Shown: piece after piece, positions 5,522 to 15,814 of the stretch | Layout: each line of letters begins with the position of its first letter | Position numbering within the stretch: position 1 is the stretch's first letter | IMG/VR virus record: IMGVR_UViG_2541047733_000004 | Reading direction: 5' to 3' (one strand) | Source of the DNA: a virus | Taxonomy: Duplodnaviria > Heunggongvirae > Uroviricota > Caudoviricetes | Length of the DNA stretch: 46,330 bases | The notes under the pieces: model-generated | Told to the model about the DNA's origin: nothing | The model's database searches: none | The model's input: only the letters and a program-made list of their open reading frames with translations | Program-made: the position numbers and the translations under genes

Positions 5522-6202
5522 TCATCGCCATTGCTCCCCAAATACAAAACTAATTTCAGCCAGTGCCTCGTCCATTTTTTCGATGAACTCCGGCACCATC
5601 TCGTCAAAACTCGCCATGTACTTTTCATCCCGCTCAACCACGACATAATGCAGTCCTTCACGCTTCATACGCGGGTCATAGTTGGCAAAGTACCAGGCAT
5701 CTTTTCGCGTCACCCACATGCTGTACTGCACCTGGGCCATGTAAGCCGATTTTATGGCCTCGAAACCACCGAGCCGGAACTTCATGAAATCCCGGGAGGT
5801 AAACGGGCATTTCAGCTCAAGGCCGTTGCCGTCACTGCATAAACCATCGGGAGAGCAGGCGGTGCGCATACTTTCGTCGCGATAGATGATCGGGGATTCA
5901 GTAACATTCACGCCGGAAGTAAACTCAAACAGGGCTCTGGCGTCGTTCTCGTACTGTTTTCCCCAAGCCAGCGCCTTAGCGTTAACTTCCGGAGCCACAC
6001 CGGTGCAAACCTCAGCAAGCAGGGTGTGGAAGTAGGACATTTTCATGTCAGGCCATTTCTTTCCGGAGCGGGGTTTTGCTATCACGTTGTGAACTTCTGA
6101 AGCGGTGATGACGCCGAGCCGTAATTTGTGCCATGCATCATCCCCCTGTTCGACAGCTCTCACGTCGATCCCGGTACGCTGCAGGATAATGTCCGGTGTC
6201 AT
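5522..6202 (-). CDS. exo: Lambda exonuclease (Red alpha)
   Basis: 226 aa, essentially identical to lambda Exo as recalled ([40 protein letters not shown]...). Confidence 0.95.
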
Positions 6203-6396
6203 GCTGCCACCTTCTGCTCAGTGGCTTTCTGTTTCAGGAATCCAAGAGCTTTCACTGCTTCGGCCTGTGTCAGTTCTGACGATGCGCGAATGTCGCGGCG
6301 AAATATCTGGGAACAGAGCGGCAATAAGTCGTCATCCCATGTTTTATCCAGGGCGATCAGCAGAGTGTTAATCTCCTGCATGGTTTCATCGTTAAC
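6199..6396 (-). pseudogene. bet: bet (Red beta), 3' fragment, separated from the 5' part by an IS21 insertion
   Basis: Encodes the Bet C-terminal 64 aa (VNDETMQEINTLLIALDKTWDDDLL...KVAA); reading frame upstream runs into IS sequence. Confidence 0.9.
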
Positions 6397-10390: not shown

Positions 10391-10591
10391 TCAGGCAGCT
10401 TTGTTGTTCTGTTTACCAAGTTCTCTGGCAATCATTGCCGTCGTTCGTATTGCCCATTTATCGACATATTTCCCATCTTCCATTACAGGAAACATTTCTT
10501 CAGGCTTAACCATGCATTCCGATTGCAGCTTGCATCCATTGCATCGTTTGAATTGTCCACACCATTGATTTGTATCAATAGTCGTAGTCAT
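10391..10591 (-). CDS. ral: Ral, restriction alleviation protein
   Basis: 66 aa, MTTTIDTNQWCGQFKRCNGCKLQSECMVKPEEMF..., near-identical to lambda Ral. Confidence 0.9.
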   Translation of the reverse strand: MTTTIDTNQWCGQFKRCNGCKLQSECMVKPEEMFPVMEDGKYVDKWAIRTTAMIARELGKQNNKAA

Positions 10592-10650
10592 ACGGATAGT
10601 CCTGGTATTGTTCCATCACATCTTGAGGATGCTCTTCGAACTCTTCAAAT
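10575..10650 (-). CDS. Possible small acidic peptide (lambda orf28-like)
   Basis: Hand-translated MEEEFEEFEEHPQDVMEQYQDYPYDYDY upstream of ral; below the track length cutoff. Confidence 0.3.
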
Positions 10651-10804
10651 TCTTCTTCCATATATCACCTTAAATAGTGGATTGCGGTAGTAAAGATTGT
10701 GCCTGTCTTTTAACCACATCAGGCTCGGTGGTTCTCGTGTACCCCTACAACGAGAAATCGGATAAACTCTATTCACCCCTACAGAGAGCAAAAGAGAAAC
10801 GCCG

Positions 10805-11386
10805 ATGAACAACTCATGGTGGCAGGAACTAATGCATTTTTTCCTGCAAGGAATGACACTTAAACAGTTGATTCATATGCTAATCATCCTGATCATATTG
10901 ATTATTGTTATGCCGGTAAGCGTAAAAGAATGGATAAACCTGCATAGTCCAGAAATCCTTCCTCATTACTGGATGTATTACATCCTGTTGTTTTGCGTTA
11001 GCTATGTGCTTAACGGCGTTGTTAATTCCGCTTATCACGCTGTGACTGAAAGAATTGAGGTATTCGCTGCTCAGAAGCGCAAATCTAAAGAAGAAAAATA
11101 TGTGCAAGATTTGTTTGATTCGTTAACTCTTGGAGAAAGAGCGTATTTGGCATTCGCTGTAGCCGCTAATAACCAGCTACAAACGGAAAAGGGCGCTCAT
11201 GAATCAATTTCATTGCTCAAAAAAGGACTCCTCGTTCGAAGGCCTCCTGCTGTTGGATATCCTGATACCGACCGTTTCGTTATCCCTGAAAGCTATAGAC
11301 ATGAGTGCTACATTAGGTTTGCCGGGAAGGCAGACAGCCTTATGGATGAACTTATCGCTCAGGATAAGCATGGCAAAAACAAGTAA
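10805..11386 (+). CDS. sieB: SieB, superinfection exclusion protein B
   Basis: 193 aa, N-terminus MNNSWWQELMHFFLQGMTLKQLIHMLIILIILIIVMPV with a TM segment as in lambda SieB; opposite strand to the pL operon as in lambda. Confidence 0.8.
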   Translation: MNNSWWQELMHFFLQGMTLKQLIHMLIILIILIIVMPVSVKEWINLHSPEILPHYWMYYILLFCVSYVLNGVVNSAYHAVTERIEVFAAQKRKSKEEKYVQDLFDSLTLGERAYLAFAVAANNQLQTEKGAHESISLLKKGLLVRRPPAVGYPDTDRFVIPESYRHECYIRFAGKADSLMDELIAQDKHGKNK

Positions 11387-11402
11387 TTAGCAAATGAATT
11401 TA

Positions 11403-11675
11403 TCATCTCGCCGTCAGTTGTTTTGATTTCCGGTAGCCTGCCGCGTAAAGAGCTACGTTCGGAAGACAAGTTGAACCTTCATATTTTCTGGTCAACGTTG
11501 TCAGAGTTATCACTTCTGCTCTCATTGCTGGTTTGAGCTTGCATTGCAAGACCACTCGTGAAGGGGTTGGCCTGTGTAGCTTGTCGGAGCTGATCGCCTC
11601 CTGACTTTGCAGATTTGCGCGACGAGCTCTACGGCGAGAAGCTGCGGTGCCTTTAAATTCTGTTTTTCTGGACAT
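11403..11675 (-). CDS. N: N-type transcription antiterminator (P22 gp24-like)
   Basis: C-terminus ...VALYAAGYRKSKQLTAR resembles P22 gene 24 protein; arginine-rich N-terminal motif (GTAASRRRARRA); GGGAGG RBS before ATG at 11675; first gene downstream of nutL. Confidence 0.75.
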   Translation of the reverse strand: MSRKTEFKGTAASRRRARRANLQSQEAISSDKLHRPTPSRVVLQCKLKPAMRAEVITLTTLTRKYEGSTCLPNVALYAAGYRKSKQLTAR

Positions 11676-11773
11676 GGATTCCTCCCGAATAAACTTTGGC
11701 GATGCAATCTCGAAGCTCCTCCTGAGACGGTTGCTTCGGCATTGCATCCCACAGCTTATGTGGTTGGGTGATC

Positions 11774-11819
11774 TGGCTTTTCAGCCACGTAGTCGAGAGT
11801 CGACGTTGTTTAAAGAGCC
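11774..11819 (-). promoter_or_regulatory. nutL (boxA GCTCTTTAAACAA, boxB hairpin TGGCTGAAAAGCCA)
   Basis: boxA-like sequence and a GAAAA-loop boxB hairpin read on the minus strand; same architecture and same CTACG spacer end as the nutR candidate. Confidence 0.6.
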
Positions 11820-12078
11820 TGCCAGTCTGTTCCATTTGGCTTCCAGCGTCCTGCTGACGGTTAAATAGTACGATATGTACTTTACAAGATCAATACAATT
11901 TGTTGTAAGTTGGCGTGGTTTTTTATAACGCTTTGTATTTAATAGTGTTGTTTTTTAGCGTGGATGTATTGCCTCGGCGATGTAAGGAGAGATCAGAATT
12001 GCGTGGTTTAGTGGGTTGCATCTATTTATTTTTCAATAAATATAATTGGTTATGTGTTTTTAGGTGGGCAAACGTGAG

Positions 12079-12108
12079 GCAAAGAAAACCCGGCGCTGAG
12101 GCCGGGTT
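12079..12108 (-). terminator. Rho-independent terminator ending the cI-cargo transcript
   Basis: Hairpin AACCCGGC-GCTGAG-GCCGGGTT followed on the minus strand by a U-run; directly after the stop of the 250-aa gene. Confidence 0.6.
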
Positions 12109-12111
12109 GTA

Positions 12112-12864
12112 TTATGCTGCAAGTCTCTTAACCCAAGTCTCTCTTTTGGAGAATGGTAGAACTTGGCTTGATTCATGGAAGAGTAAGGAGAGTTGTTGCA
12201 TTTGATCACCAATTGCTTCGCTGTCTATAACAACAAATCTGTTGTTATACTCCTCACTTGAAGCTTTAAGATCAATTAGTTTCCCAAGCAATGAGTAAGC
12301 ACTATTCCAGCTTCCTCCGTGTTTCACGCTTGATGTAAAAACGTATTTAGGTATGTCGGTTTTTATTGTTACAGGGACGGTAATTTGATGTCCACTCAAG
12401 CCATATACGTTTTCACGAAGAGAAAGTGCGTCTCTAAGCTCTGTGTGATATAGATAATCAATAACCATACTTTCAAACTTTTCAGCTTGAACTGGCTGAT
12501 ACCAGTCTAACGACAAAGTTGATGCGAGTATACCAGCTCTAATTATGTTCGATGTAATCGCACCGACATCCTTTTCTGTTGCCCAAGCAATGATTTCTCC
12601 TCGAGCATTGAGTTCTGCGCCTTCTTTAAGCAGTAATTGTCGTATCTCATCAAGTCGTTTTTTGGTAAGCGAGATCCCTCTTGCCTCCATATTCATTAAG
12701 GCATCGCATCTGTCACTAACTAAATACCTACCATTGACTTCACGGATAAAGGCACCGACATGCTCTCCATCATCACAGTAAGTGAATGGACTGATAATTC
12801 TCAAGGTCTTGCCTATTGGATGGCATTCGAAACCTAGTTGTGAGATCACTGTTGAGCACATCAT
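12112..12864 (-). CDS. Unknown protein, 250 aa; second gene of the rex-position cassette
   Basis: ORF whose ATG overlaps the upstream stop (ATGA); visibly AT-rich codon usage; no recognisable catalytic motif. Confidence 0.6.
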   Translation of the reverse strand: MMCSTVISQLGFECHPIGKTLRIISPFTYCDDGEHVGAFIREVNGRYLVSDRCDALMNMEARGISLTKKRLDEIRQLLLKEGAELNARGEIIAWATEKDVGAITSNIIRAGILASTLSLDWYQPVQAEKFESMVIDYLYHTELRDALSLRENVYGLSGHQITVPVTIKTDIPKYVFTSSVKHGGSWNSAYSLLGKLIDLKASSEEYNNRFVVIDSEAIGDQMQQLSLLFHESSQVLPFSKRETWVKRLAA

Positions 12865-13418
12865 ATTCCAAACCCCATTTGCCCCGACTCATCTTCAAGC
12901 GGTAAAGGTATTCTCCCAGAGTAAGTTATGTTCAGATGTTTACAGAAGTAATTCCAATACCCTACCAGGTCATCTGGGTTTATGTCATCTTCGATTGGAA
13001 ACGCTATTCTATCACTATAGTATCCAGCTTCTTCATAGTATACATGGTAGTGAGCACCGTAAATGATATCTTGGTACTTCGGATGATCGACCTTGTAACT
13101 ATTCGTGTGTTTGTCAAAGTGATAGGTATCTACCGCGAAAACCCTCTTGTTATGATAGAAAGCAATAATATTTATTTTAGGGTAAGAAATCGGGTCATCA
13201 GGTTCTGAATCCTGATCTGGTTTCCATTTCAGTTCAAACTTTAGCCCTTGTATAGGTATACAATCCTCATCCAAGGGGATGATATGGGCTTGTAGCCACA
13301 TATCAGAGCGACTTGGTTTCTGTTTCCATTTAACGCCAGAAAAGTTAACTATTTTTTTACAATAAAGTACTTTATCAACTTCTACTTGGCTTGGCTGATA
13401 ATCATCTATTTTTGCCAA
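12861..13418 (-). CDS. Unknown protein, 185 aa; first gene of the rex-position cassette
   Basis: ORF 39 nt downstream of the cI stop, same strand; apparent TTG start preceded by a GGGCGG-like RBS; AT-rich; acidic, Tyr/His-rich. Confidence 0.55.
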   Translation of the reverse strand: MAKIDDYQPSQVEVDKVLYCKKIVNFSGVKWKQKPSRSDMWLQAHIIPLDEDCIPIQGLKFELKWKPDQDSEPDDPISYPKINIIAFYHNKRVFAVDTYHFDKHTNSYKVDHPKYQDIIYGAHYHVYYEEAGYYSDRIAFPIEDDINPDDLVGYWNYFCKHLNITYSGRIPLPLEDESGQMGFGI

Positions 13419-13457
13419 TGTTTACCGCCCTGTAAATTGTAGATAAAAGTGGTTTCA

Positions 13458-14117
13458 TCACCCAAACGTCTCTTCAGGCCATTGGCTGGCGATAACTTTC
13501 CCCACAACGGAACAACTCTCATTGCATGGGATCATTGGGTATTGTGGGTTTAGTGGCTGTAGAAACACCTGACCGCTATCCCTGATCAGTTTCTTGAAGG
13601 TAAATTCATCACCACCAAGTCTGGCTATGCAGAAATCGCCGGGCTCAACAGCTTGCTCAGGGTCAACCAGAATTAACATCCCGTCAGGAAAGCTGGGTTT
13701 GGAACCTGTTGGTGCGGTCATTGAGTTACCTTCAACCTCAAGCCAGAATGCAGAGTCACTGGCTTTTTTGGTTGTGCTTACCAATCTCTCCGCATCGCCT
13801 TTGGTAAAGGTTCTGAGTTCTGGAGAGAACATCCCAGCCTGAACATGAGAAAAAACAGGGTACTCATATTGTTTTTTAACTGGGGCCGATGAGTATTCGC
13901 CAACAGGTGAAAATGTCCCGTCGTGGTTGAATGATATGTTATCAATACCAAGGTATTTAAACACCACACCAATATCACTAAGAGATGGATGACGAGATCC
14001 GCGCAACCAGTGTCCAATCCCACCCTGCGTCATACCTAGCTCTTCGGCTAACTTCTCTTGAGTTATGCCGAGCTCTTTCATTCTGGATCTAGCCAGTTCA
14101 TACCATTTCATTTTCAT
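13458..14117 (-). CDS. cI: CI-type prophage repressor (lambda-like C-terminal domain, different N-terminal HTH)
   Basis: C-terminal 130 aa near-identical to lambda CI ([22 protein letters not shown]...[12 protein letters not shown]...[10 protein letters not shown]); N-terminal HTH domain differs; likely start MKMKW at 14117. Confidence 0.9.
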
Positions 14118-14228
14118 GTCCTTATTATTACGCTCTGTACTGGAACCATCCATGCACAATGTGTATTTTTACTTGTATTCGCAAAGTACATATTGTATTT
14201 TTTTATTCGTGTTTACTATGGAGGGCAT
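14118..14228. promoter_or_regulatory. Right operator region (OR, divergent pRM and pR)
   Basis: Divergent cI/cro intergenic region with imperfect dyads (e.g. TGTATTCGCAAAGTACA); individual operators not resolved. Confidence 0.6.
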
Positions 14229-14444
14229 ATGAGCAACCTACGAAAATATCGAGAGTCACTGAATATCTCTCAAACAACACTTGCTAAGGCAGTTGGATGC
14301 ACACAGGGAGCTATCGGACATTGGGAATCTGGTCGTCGCTTCCCAGACCTTAAAACATGCCGTGCTCTTGTTGCGTGCCTAAACAAGTTAGGCGCAAAAG
14401 TCAGTCTTGATGACGTGTTCCCGCCGGAACACAAAGCCGCTTAA
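14229..14444 (+). CDS. cro: Cro-like HTH repressor
   Basis: 71 aa, MSNLRKYRESLNISQTTLAKAVGCTQGAIGHWESG..., HTH_XRE motif; first gene rightward of OR. Confidence 0.8.
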   Translation: MSNLRKYRESLNISQTTLAKAVGCTQGAIGHWESGRRFPDLKTCRALVACLNKLGAKVSLDDVFPPEHKAA

Positions 14445-14454
14445 TAAGCGGATC

Positions 14455-14500
14455 CGCTCTTTGTAACAACGGACATTCGTCCTACGTCGCTGAAAAGCGA
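14455..14500 (+). promoter_or_regulatory. nutR (boxA CGCTCTTTGTAACAA, boxB hairpin TCGCTGAAAAGCGA)
   Basis: boxA consensus match and a GAAAA-loop hairpin immediately downstream of cro; paired with the nutL candidate. Confidence 0.65.
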
Positions 14501-14585
14501 GTTCCAAGATATCTGACCAACTAAGGCCATATGCGTTTCCACGCATACCTTTCAACTAACTATTCACTATTGGAAATCTTAAGAA

Positions 14586-14882
14586 ATGGAAAGAACAAGT
14601 TACAGCAAACTATCACAGCGTGACGTTGATCGCGCAGAAACAGATTTACTTATCAATCTGTCAGCTATTACCCAGCGCGGTCTGGCAAAGATGATTGGCT
14701 GTCATGAATCGAAGATAAGCAGAACGGACTGGAGATTTATTGCTTCGGTCTTGTGTGCTTTCGGAATGGCATCAGACATCAGTCCGATTAGCAGGGCTTT
14801 TAAGTATGCGCTTGATGGACTCACCAATAAAAAACGCCCGGCGGCAACCGAGCGTTCTGAACAAATCCAGATGGAATTCTGA
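14586..14882 (+). CDS. cII: CII transcriptional activator (hybrid, lambda-like C-terminus)
   Basis: 98 aa; C-terminus ...LTNKKRPAATERSEQIQMEF matches lambda CII; N-terminal HTH region differs. Confidence 0.85.
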   Translation: MERTSYSKLSQRDVDRAETDLLINLSAITQRGLAKMIGCHESKISRTDWRFIASVLCAFGMASDISPISRAFKYALDGLTNKKRPAATERSEQIQMEF

Positions 14883-14914
14883 GGTCATTACTGGATCAAT
14901 CCACAGGAGTCATT

Positions 14915-15814
14915 ATGACAAATACAGCAAAAATACTCAACTTCTGCAGAGGTAACTTTGCCAAACAGGAGCGTAATGTGGCAGATCTCGATGATGGTTA
15001 CGCCAGACTATCAAATATGCTGCTTGAGGCTTATTCAGGCGCAGATCTGACCAAGCGACAGTTTAAAGTGCTGCTTGCCATTCTGCGTAAAACCTATGGA
15101 TGGAATAAACCAATGGACAGAATCACCGATTCTCAACTTAGCGAGATTACAAAGTTACCCGTCAAACGGTGCAATGAAGCCAAGTTAGAACTCGTCAGAA
15201 TGAATATTATCAAGCAGCAAGGCGGCATGTTTGGACCAAATAAAAACATCTCAGAATGGTGTATCCCTCAAAACGAGGGAAAATCCCCTAAAACGAGGGA
15301 TAAAACATCCCTCAAATTGGGGGATTGCTATCCCTCAAAACAGGGGGACACAAAAGACACTATTACAAAAGAAAAAAGAAAAGATTATTCGTCAGAGAAT
15401 TCTGGCGAATCCTCTGACCAGCCAGAAAACGACCTTTCTGTGGTGAAACCGGATGCTGCAATTCAGAGCGGCAGCAAGTGGGGGACAGCAGAAGACCTGA
15501 CCGCCGCAGAATGGATGTTTGACATGGTGAAGACCATCGCGCCATCAGCCAGAAAACCGAATTTTGCAGGGTGGGCTAACGATATCCGCCTGATGCGTGA
15601 ACGTGACGGACGTAACCATCGCGACATGTGTGTACTGTTCCGCTGGGCATGCCAGGACAACTTCTGGTCCGGTAACGTGCTGAGCCCGGCCAAACTCCGC
15701 GACAAGTGGACCCAGCTCGAAATCAACCGTAACAAGCAACAGGCAGGTGTGACAGCCTGCAAACCAAAACTCGACCTGACAAACACTGACTGGATTTACG
15801 GGGTGGATTTATGA
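14915..15814 (+). CDS. O: Replication initiator O
   Basis: 299 aa, near-identical to lambda O (MTNTAKILNF...); contains the origin iterons. Confidence 0.95.
   Translation: MTNTAKILNFCRGNFAKQERNVADLDDGYARLSNMLLEAYSGADLTKRQFKVLLAILRKTYGWNKPMDRITDSQLSEITKLPVKRCNEAKLELVRMNIIKQQGGMFGPNKNISEWCIPQNEGKSPKTRDKTSLKLGDCYPSKQGDTKDTITKEKRKDYSSENSGESSDQPENDLSVVKPDAAIQSGSKWGTAEDLTAAEWMFDMVKTIAPSARKPNFAGWANDIRLMRERDGRNHRDMCVLFRWACQDNFWSGNVLSPAKLRDKWTQLEINRNKQQAGVTACKPKLDLTNTDWIYGVDL
15263..15430 (+). repeat. Lambda-type origin: four about 18-bp iterons plus adjacent AT-rich region, inside O
   Basis: ATCCCTCAAAACGAGGGA, ATCCCCTAAAACGAGGGA, ATCCCTCAAATTGGGGGA, ATCCCTCAAAACAGGGGGA, followed by an A-rich tract. 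Confidence 0.9.

Follow-up and report, generated by a model that had tools for sequence, protein, structure and literature searches.

Two small genes, which we refer to as A and B, lie directly behind the cI repressor gene in a stretch of viral DNA of 46,330 nucleotides (IMG/VR record IMGVR_UViG_2541047733_000004, Caudoviricetes; hereafter the window). From their sequence context they are probably an accessory, or 'moron', operon occupying the lambdoid hotspot between cI and the terminator tM, and would act in lysogens as an anti-phage module of the toxin-antitoxin (TA), abortive-infection or exclusion type. We favored an anti-phage role because of the position of the pair, its replacement at the same site by validated systems, and a weak homology to a defence candidate. 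The interval studied, which we call the cassette, spans positions 12079 to 13457; it is bounded by the first base past the cI stop codon on one side and by the end of the terminator on the other.

To establish that the two genes are real and belong together we compared them with their relatives. Measured against divergent alleles, A and B showed dN values of 0.1-0.5, a dS that was saturated (>2 or undefined) and, where it could be computed, an omega of ~0.04-0.2; judged by these rates, both genes are under strong purifying selection. Homologues occur across the Enterobacterales and also in Aeromonas and Thorsellia, and this conservation across genera, together with the purifying selection, ruled out that A and B are chance open reading frames (ORFs) in AT-rich DNA. 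A first-pass annotation of the locus had described two ORFs, one of 185 amino acids (aa) with a TTG start and one of 250 aa, joined by an ATGA overlap, which is exactly what we found; the 4-nt overlap is kept in 86/86 related loci. The unusual start of A is supported by its M-A-K N-terminus, conserved among the homologues, and by their initiation at the same codon, which is GTG in 58, TTG in 27 and ATG in one of 86 loci. Such a consistent use of non-ATG starts (85/86) suggests that a low translation of A relative to B has been selected. How often the pair recurs in other prophages had been left as a question by the same annotation. When related loci were collected with B as the seed, A was found immediately upstream in 88/88, and when they were collected with A, B was immediately downstream in 80/80, with ~97% of the pairs behind a prophage repressor gene; two of three single distant B proteins used as queries gave no match in viral contigs. 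The pairwise distances of A and B correlate (r = 0.94), and A diverges faster than B in 98.7% of the comparisons, with a mean ratio of 1.38. By these comparisons, A-B is an obligate, co-diverging and translationally coupled pair.

The cI-N interval has been published as a mosaic hotspot harbouring rexAB and bstA (PMC8585504). To examine what occupies it behind the repressor of the window, we compared a set of 80 viral contigs encoding a cI with 97-100% amino acid identity to that of the window. Between the cI stop codon and tM these contigs hold at least 16 unrelated cargo classes, or nothing at all, the empty site measuring 36 bp in three contigs. The borders of every alternative cargo are exact, with the cI stop codon at one and the tM hairpin CCCGGCCTCAGCGCCGGG at the other (13458 and 12087-12108 in the window; loci L101-L175), and these conserved flanks look like recombination anchors for cargo exchange. 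One contig (L162) carries RexA (PADLOC E 3.5e-116) followed by an ORF with several transmembrane (TM) segments that resembles RexB, another (L163) carries BstA (PADLOC E 4.1e-106), and others a three-gene system like PD-T4-9 (PD-T4-9_C match) that includes a HigB-like toxin, HicAB, a NYN-domain protein or a ClpP-like SDH protease. In phage 933W the slot holds the Stk kinase, which matches the PD-T4-6 defence kinase models. The equivalence of this slot to that of rexAB, proposed on first inspection, is thus borne out by its occupants. The pair itself is present behind the same cI as two divergent alleles, the window type and that of L104, with an A of 180 aa and a B of 258 aa. At least seven further cargo types gave no match in PADLOC or Pfam (L116, L164, L155, L101, L140, L148, L102 and L109); they include proteins of 173, 348, 332 and 126 aa, a pair of 135 and 216 aa, a 177-aa membrane protein, and a 285-aa protein accompanied by a 163-aa multi-TM protein, a combination also found in phage PhiR11_1.

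We then looked at the genes that precede A-B. The same-strand upstream neighbour is an S24-type repressor in 79/87 loci and a short helix-turn-helix (HTH) repressor in 6 more; the identity of these repressors to the window cI lies between 25% and 100%. The order repressor-A-B is retained even where B is only 20-40% identical (L091, L092 and L098). In L092, where B is 35% identical, the S24 repressor and the A-like gene are separated by an additional ORF (5896-6228) of 110 aa whose N-terminus resembles a signal peptide. A very distant A-like/B pair (B ~23% identical) occurs at 4920-6351 of L256, adjoining TonB_C and EF-G-like genes and with no repressor; in this non-phage context a 62-aa ORF overlaps the end of B. 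Since the L256 pair lies outside any repressor context, it is the A-B pair, and not its linkage to a repressor, that is the invariant unit.

The features of the locus, in the order of the minus strand, are the following:

14183-14203, unstranded: OR-side operator-like sequence in the cI-cro divergent promoter region (pRM/pR), a 21-nt inverted match to 11863-11883
13458-14153, minus strand: cI repressor, LexA/S24 type, gene 1 of the operon (Peptidase_S24 E 1.3e-28, HTH_3 E 2.1e-10)
13419-13457, minus strand: cI-A spacer of 39 bp, free of terminator-like sites
12861-13418, minus strand: gene A, 185 aa, TTG start, DUF6978-like
12861-12864, minus strand: ATGA overlap of the A stop and the B start, 4 nt, predicted translational coupling (read from the sequence)
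12112-12864, minus strand: gene B, 250 aa, ATG start, C-terminus ...RLAA
12087-12108, minus strand: tM, predicted intrinsic terminator of the cI-A-B transcript and right boundary of the cargo hotspot (terminator scan)
11863-11883, unstranded: OL-side operator-like sequence that neighbours a pL-like promoter and precedes N (inverted copy of the OR-side element)
11403-11747: N gene (N_peptide E 9.7e-33)

On the minus strand the locus therefore reads cI, spacer, A, B and a GC-rich hairpin with a T-run. In the annotation of the identical phage PhiR57_1 the cI gene is 696 bp long, and the longest cI ORF reaches 14159. The hairpin (8 pairs, 6 of them GC) lies directly past the B stop and is ~96% identical to the annotated tM of phage 933W, whose record labels it a 'putative terminator for pM transcript'. 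A terminator scan detected no terminator-like site between cI and A, and the promoter-like matches in the region (5, against 6.2 expected from shuffled sequence) showed no excess. With the short spacer and the common terminator, these results make the cI-A-B-tM anatomy consistent with a single transcript, and co-transcription with cI in the lysogen is predicted. The OL-side and OR-side elements are inverted copies over 21 nt (86% complementary), and of the operator core 11-mer AAAGTACATAT, common to both sides, the window has 4 copies where 0.46 would be expected; the repeats thus bracket the cI-A-B unit in an OL-like and OR-like manner. Congruently, the first-pass annotation had placed the pair right behind cI in the same orientation, ending at an intrinsic terminator ahead of OL/pL, and each of these elements was recovered. 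It had also described the DNA as richer in AT than its flanks. This holds against cI and N, since the cassette has a GC content of 39.6% (A 38.2%, B 40.6%) compared with 46.3% in cI, 49.9% in N and 50.4% in the whole window, and a third-position GC (GC3) of 0.34-0.36 compared with 0.45-0.58 in its neighbours; it does not set the cassette apart from nearby accessory genes, as sieB (41.2%) and an ea10-like gene (38.2%) are similarly low.

To learn what the proteins may do, we examined their predicted structures and their conserved residues. The model of A is confident (AlphaFold2, pLDDT 85.5, pTM 0.84) but retrieved no solved relative in structure and fold searches, its one match being an uncharacterised viral protein, and comparison with PDB sequences, using both the single protein and a profile, gave no credible match. 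A hit to designed SAKe propellers (E 4e-6 and 1e-9; zero qualifying stretches) was discarded because it reflects a Kelch-blade-like motif multiplied by six identical repeats, not homology. Several motifs of A are kept down to ~16% identity, the non-phage pair included: R92-x-x-A-x-D97, H104-x-N106, G121-x-H123-x-H125, W155/F158-C159 and a C-terminal tail resembling G-Q-x-x-L-L, which is conserved yet disordered in the model. Residues D97, H104, N106, H123 and H125 are invariant, and the His/Asn/His/His residues fall on neighbouring beta-strands (103-105 and 123-126) of the predicted structure; this Asp/His/Asn/His/His cluster is a probable metal or active site of the modelled protein. The similarity of A to described families is faint. 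Against Pfam DUF6978 (PF22398) it scores 22 bits, below the cut-off of 29.6, and aligns to profile positions 81-133 only; 4/9 of its relatives match the same family, all below the cut-off, with a best E of 7.1e-5. Against the PADLOC model PDLC04536 of PDC-M24A, residues 104-163 align to positions 79-134 of 148 (E 4.8e-4), a weak match over ~38% of the model, and 3/9 diverse relatives of A give similarly weak matches.

Protein B is predicted to have two domains (AlphaFold2, pLDDT 84). The N-terminal one (residues ~1-121) would adopt the DUF1828 fold, which is similar to YbjN and to type III secretion system chaperones, and residues 26-110 match Pfam DUF1828 (PF08861) above the gathering threshold (33.5 bits against a cut-off of 22). 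The C-terminal one (~129-250) has a predicted restriction-endonuclease-like fold with an alpha-beta-beta-beta-alpha-beta core. Along its full length (residues 2-249 to positions 4-254 of 256) B matches the PDC-M24B profile PDLC04540 with an E of 4.7e-10, and PDLC04539 with an E of 1.5e-7; 37/42 distant relatives match PDC-M24B as well. In an alignment of 116 family members the conserved residues are D51 (100%), G155-x-S157-G158-H159, K195, D198 (96%) and an acidic residue at position 214 (D/E214). The family is small and uniform, with 229 representatives at 50% clustering, nearly all of them of ~250 aa. Its C-terminus resembles an ssrA tag: ...LAA is present in 34/41 close relatives, and ...AA in 44/108 family representatives. 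Neither B nor its C-terminal domain had a meaningful match among PDB sequences, searched as a single protein and as a profile. The NCBIfam search returned nothing for either protein, the Pfam search found no HTH, ribbon-helix-helix (RHH) or AbrB domain in A or B, and each of the two belongs to a PHROG family of unknown function.

Three statements of the first-pass annotation concern these proteins. That neither has TM segments was corroborated, as the maximum Kyte-Doolittle score over 19 residues was 0.45 for A and 1.19 for B, compared with 3.03 for the SieB control; no signal peptide was found either, and both proteins are predicted to be cytoplasmic. That neither resembles RexA or RexB agrees with this result and with the lack of any RexA match in PADLOC and Pfam, where the control at L162 is detected readily. 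The absence of a nuclease motif stood at the level of the sequence but not at that of the predicted structure, given the restriction-endonuclease-like fold of the C-terminal half of B.

We next compared the pair with known systems. RexA-RexB of lambda, like A-B, are encoded by a gene pair that follows cI directly in the same orientation and precedes OL/pL. The lambda genes are expressed in the lysogen, whereas for A-B such expression is predicted from position; A and B have no sequence similarity to RexA, and since neither has TM segments, there is no counterpart of RexB, a membrane effector. BstA, found in prophage BTP1 and its relatives, is abortive-infection cargo located, like A-B, downstream of a prophage repressor and presumably under a common promoter (PMC8585504). 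BstA, which comes with a DNA-based self-immunity element (aba), comprises one protein of ~300 aa containing a KilA-N-like domain, while A-B consists of two proteins of unrelated folds. Type II TA modules such as HicAB and the PD-T4-9 type share with A-B the small overlapping gene pair, the cargo slot, a predicted protein-binding partner domain and a possible labile component. They differ in several respects: neither A nor B is homologous to a known toxin or antitoxin, A-B lacks both an HTH/RHH autoregulatory domain and its own promoter, and its toxin candidate precedes the partner gene in the operon and is the faster-evolving of the two. The predicted core of B 129-250 is like that of PD-(D/E)xK effectors (the NgoMIV/Cfr10I/PspGI class and the nuclease domain of Can2), with other conserved residues in place of the canonical ones and no PDB profile match. 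The YbjN/DUF2170/type III secretion chaperone fold is, in B, fused to the nuclease-like fold and carries the family-invariant D51; unlike with type III chaperones, no secretion system is involved, and we infer that A is the binding partner of B.

A further likeness is to PDC-M24, a PADLOC candidate that also consists of two adjacent genes, with a full-length but weak match for B and a marginal match in the conserved core for A. PADLOC matches of A-B are confined to these two components, and their weakness, with A covering ~38% of its model, indicates that A-B is a divergent branch. PDC-x systems are unpublished PADLOC candidates (PMC11811056). We found no paper that mentions PDC-M24, and no published phenotype or mechanism for it; DUF1828, DUF6978 and their Pfam accessions appear in the literature as incidental mentions only, and DUF1828 is absent from the supplements of the Millman et al. 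preprint. The searchable literature yielded no experimental characterisation of A or B (Brenes & Laub 2025, the probable source of the PhiR phages, was outside that search). The cassette had been called undescribed on first inspection, which stands as far as the searchable experimental literature goes but is too strong otherwise, given the matches to DUF1828, to the PHROG families and to PDC-M24 (weak over the full length of B, marginal in A). As judged by homology, A-B is outside every characterised family and is distantly related to a PADLOC candidate that is itself unvalidated. We raise, tentatively, the idea that A-B represents a new and widespread family of repressor-linked two-protein abortive-infection (Abi) systems, in which a catalytic A with an unsolved fold and a metal site of three His, Asp and Asn would be controlled by a B made of a type III chaperone-like domain fused to a degenerate restriction-endonuclease fold. 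To our knowledge, no characterised defence system has been described with such an effector/regulator architecture.

A possible mechanism, which we put forward with less confidence than the anti-phage role itself, resembles that of a TA system with A as the effector and B as its inhibitor. A would be a catalytic effector produced sparingly owing to its GTG/TTG start, and would be kept inactive in a complex with B, whose chaperone-like domain possibly grips the C-terminal tail of A. B would be translated from its ATG through coupling and, given its ssrA-like ...LAA end, may be proteolytically labile. Infection would then tip the balance between A and B, either because a phage protein binds the faster-evolving A or because B is lost after host shut-off, and the freed activity would halt phage development; the nuclease-fold domain of B might tether the complex to DNA or add cleavage. 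In a variant that we regard as doubtful, yet nearly as likely, the roles would be reversed, B being a divergent nuclease effector and A a fast-evolving sensor.

Several results weigh against an anti-phage role or against parts of this mechanism. The anti-phage phenotype is itself a candidate one, derived from sequence and models, and A matches PDC-M24A and DUF6978 marginally and over part of the models. It is usually the toxin that is better conserved in a classical TA pair, and here A evolves faster. The C-terminal domain of B lacks the canonical D...(D/E)xK nuclease residues: where the catalytic Asp is expected, at the start of beta2, stands H159 (His in 60% of the 116 members); beta3 reads K173-Y-V-F176-T in the window subfamily and x-I-(Q/E)-x-V in most relatives, with no ExK; and the conserved K195 and D198 are located on a helix. 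The idea of a degron in B is weak because LAA forms the tip of a predicted helix and because 23/108 family representatives end in His. Finally, deletion of the related lambdoid prophage NC-SV of strain NC101 left the plating efficiency of four virulent phages unchanged (PMC12803456). We did not use this as a negative result because the presence of the cassette in NC-SV could not be established.

The pair could also serve purposes other than defence. We consider it unlikely that A-B is a pure addiction module, with A as toxin and B as labile antitoxin, whose function is to stabilise the prophage or the immunity region within the host lineage and not primarily to act against phages. Such a module would agree with two small, overlapping, co-diverging genes, with the chaperone-like protein-binding domain predicted in B and its ssrA-like end in most close relatives, with the weak start codon of the upstream gene A, which would favour an excess of B, and with the bona fide TA pairs in the same slot (HicAB and the HigB-like toxin of the PD-T4-9-like cargo). 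However, B has no DNA-binding autoregulatory domain and the cassette no promoter of its own, the presumed toxin is the faster-evolving partner, and post-segregational killing would be of little gain to a prophage integrated in the chromosome. This explanation moreover overlaps with the anti-phage one, since TA modules of the slot of the PD-T4-9 type are defence systems. Less probable still is an accessory role in the lysogeny switch, in which A-B would act on the repressor circuit, on induction or on excision and not against other phages, for instance by modulating RecA-dependent cleavage of cI or by controlling excision as XisH/XisI-type factors do. The synteny with repressor genes is indeed unusually deep, reaching down to 20% identity in B, and RexAB of lambda has been linked to the lysis-lysogeny balance. 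Nevertheless, phages with a 97-100% identical cI carry unrelated cargo or an empty slot, and the switch thus works without A-B, which disfavours this role; A-B also follows repressors anywhere from 25% to 100% identical to the window cI, including short HTH ones that lack the S24 domain, and one distant pair is found outside any repressor context. A conserved linkage to the repressor locus is known for BstA too, where it was attributed to the use of a strong lysogenic promoter (PMC8585504).

We give the lowest probability to a host-directed lysogenic-conversion factor that would act on fitness, stress or virulence and have nothing to do with phages or prophage maintenance. Extra-intestinal and commensal strains of the B2 type (such as Nissle 1917, ATCC 25922 and NU14) are enriched for the cassette, the surrounding prophage backbone is also found in CFT073 and ABU 83972, and morons of the cI operon can be associated with virulence, bstA having first been linked to virulence phenotypes (PMC8585504). 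On the other hand, A and B appear to be cytoplasmic, those alternative cargos with an assigned identity are defence or TA systems, and the weak homology points to a candidate family from defence islands. The proposal of the first-pass annotation that the cassette is a lysogen-expressed defence module is therefore supported, as far as sequence analysis goes, by the slot, the replacement of cargo and the weak homology to PDC-M24, with the anti-phage activity standing as a prediction.

Other elements surround the cassette. A homologue of the superinfection-exclusion protein SieB is encoded at 10805-11386 on the plus strand, just past N (Pfam SieB E 9e-22; PHROG 1301 E 1e-121), so the immunity region would hold a second exclusion gene. 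Three antisense ORFs of 78-94 aa run over A and B on the plus strand (12545-12781, 12782-13066 and 12936-13208) and most likely result from the AT richness of the coding strand. In NC-SV, svsR, a small RNA (sRNA) similar to co293, sits at the 3' end of cI (PMC12803456, 2026); an Rfam scan of 10500-15000 gave nothing credible, and a svsR- or co293-like sRNA at the corresponding place (13458-13550) was unconfirmed. The best genome matches to the first 25 kb (1-25000) cover 92% of it in two pieces; because they take in ompC and an integrase, the window seems to contain host flank on the ompC side, and one segment seems to vary between otherwise identical prophages.

Finally, we searched for the cassette in host genomes. 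At 99% identity or more it is present in 250/5,426 complete E. coli genomes (~4.6%), with all copies chromosomal, and its carriers include the type strain ATCC 11775, NU14, PMV-1, Nissle 1917 and ATCC 25922; phages PhiR57_1 and PhiR63_2 have an identical cassette. The prophage backbone of the window adjoins ompC in CFT073, ABU 83972 and ATCC 25922, and in Nissle the same immunity region lies in a remnant disrupted by insertion sequences (IS) that adjoins icd. Bury et al. (2018) cloned the 'phage repressor (pr, EcN_1294)' of Nissle 1917, reported that it protects K-12 against lambda and stx phages, and noted that another factor must contribute to the resistance of Nissle (PMC5987069). The published EcN_1294 primers (sites 14783-14800 and 14889-14909) map to the cII homologue (14586-14882) and not to cI. 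Both A-B and sieB are candidates for the additional factor.

If A-B is a working defence system, it would be a mechanistically new two-protein module for the cI-operon hotspot. Cleanly bounded by the cI stop codon and the tM hairpin, this hotspot has already given RexAB, BstA and Stk, and its unmatched cargos make up a list of further defence candidates. As the cassette is carried by probiotic, reference and infection-model strains, it could affect host range in phage therapy and phage work in these strains, and it could help to explain the part of the resistance of Nissle to lambdoid phages that is still unaccounted for.

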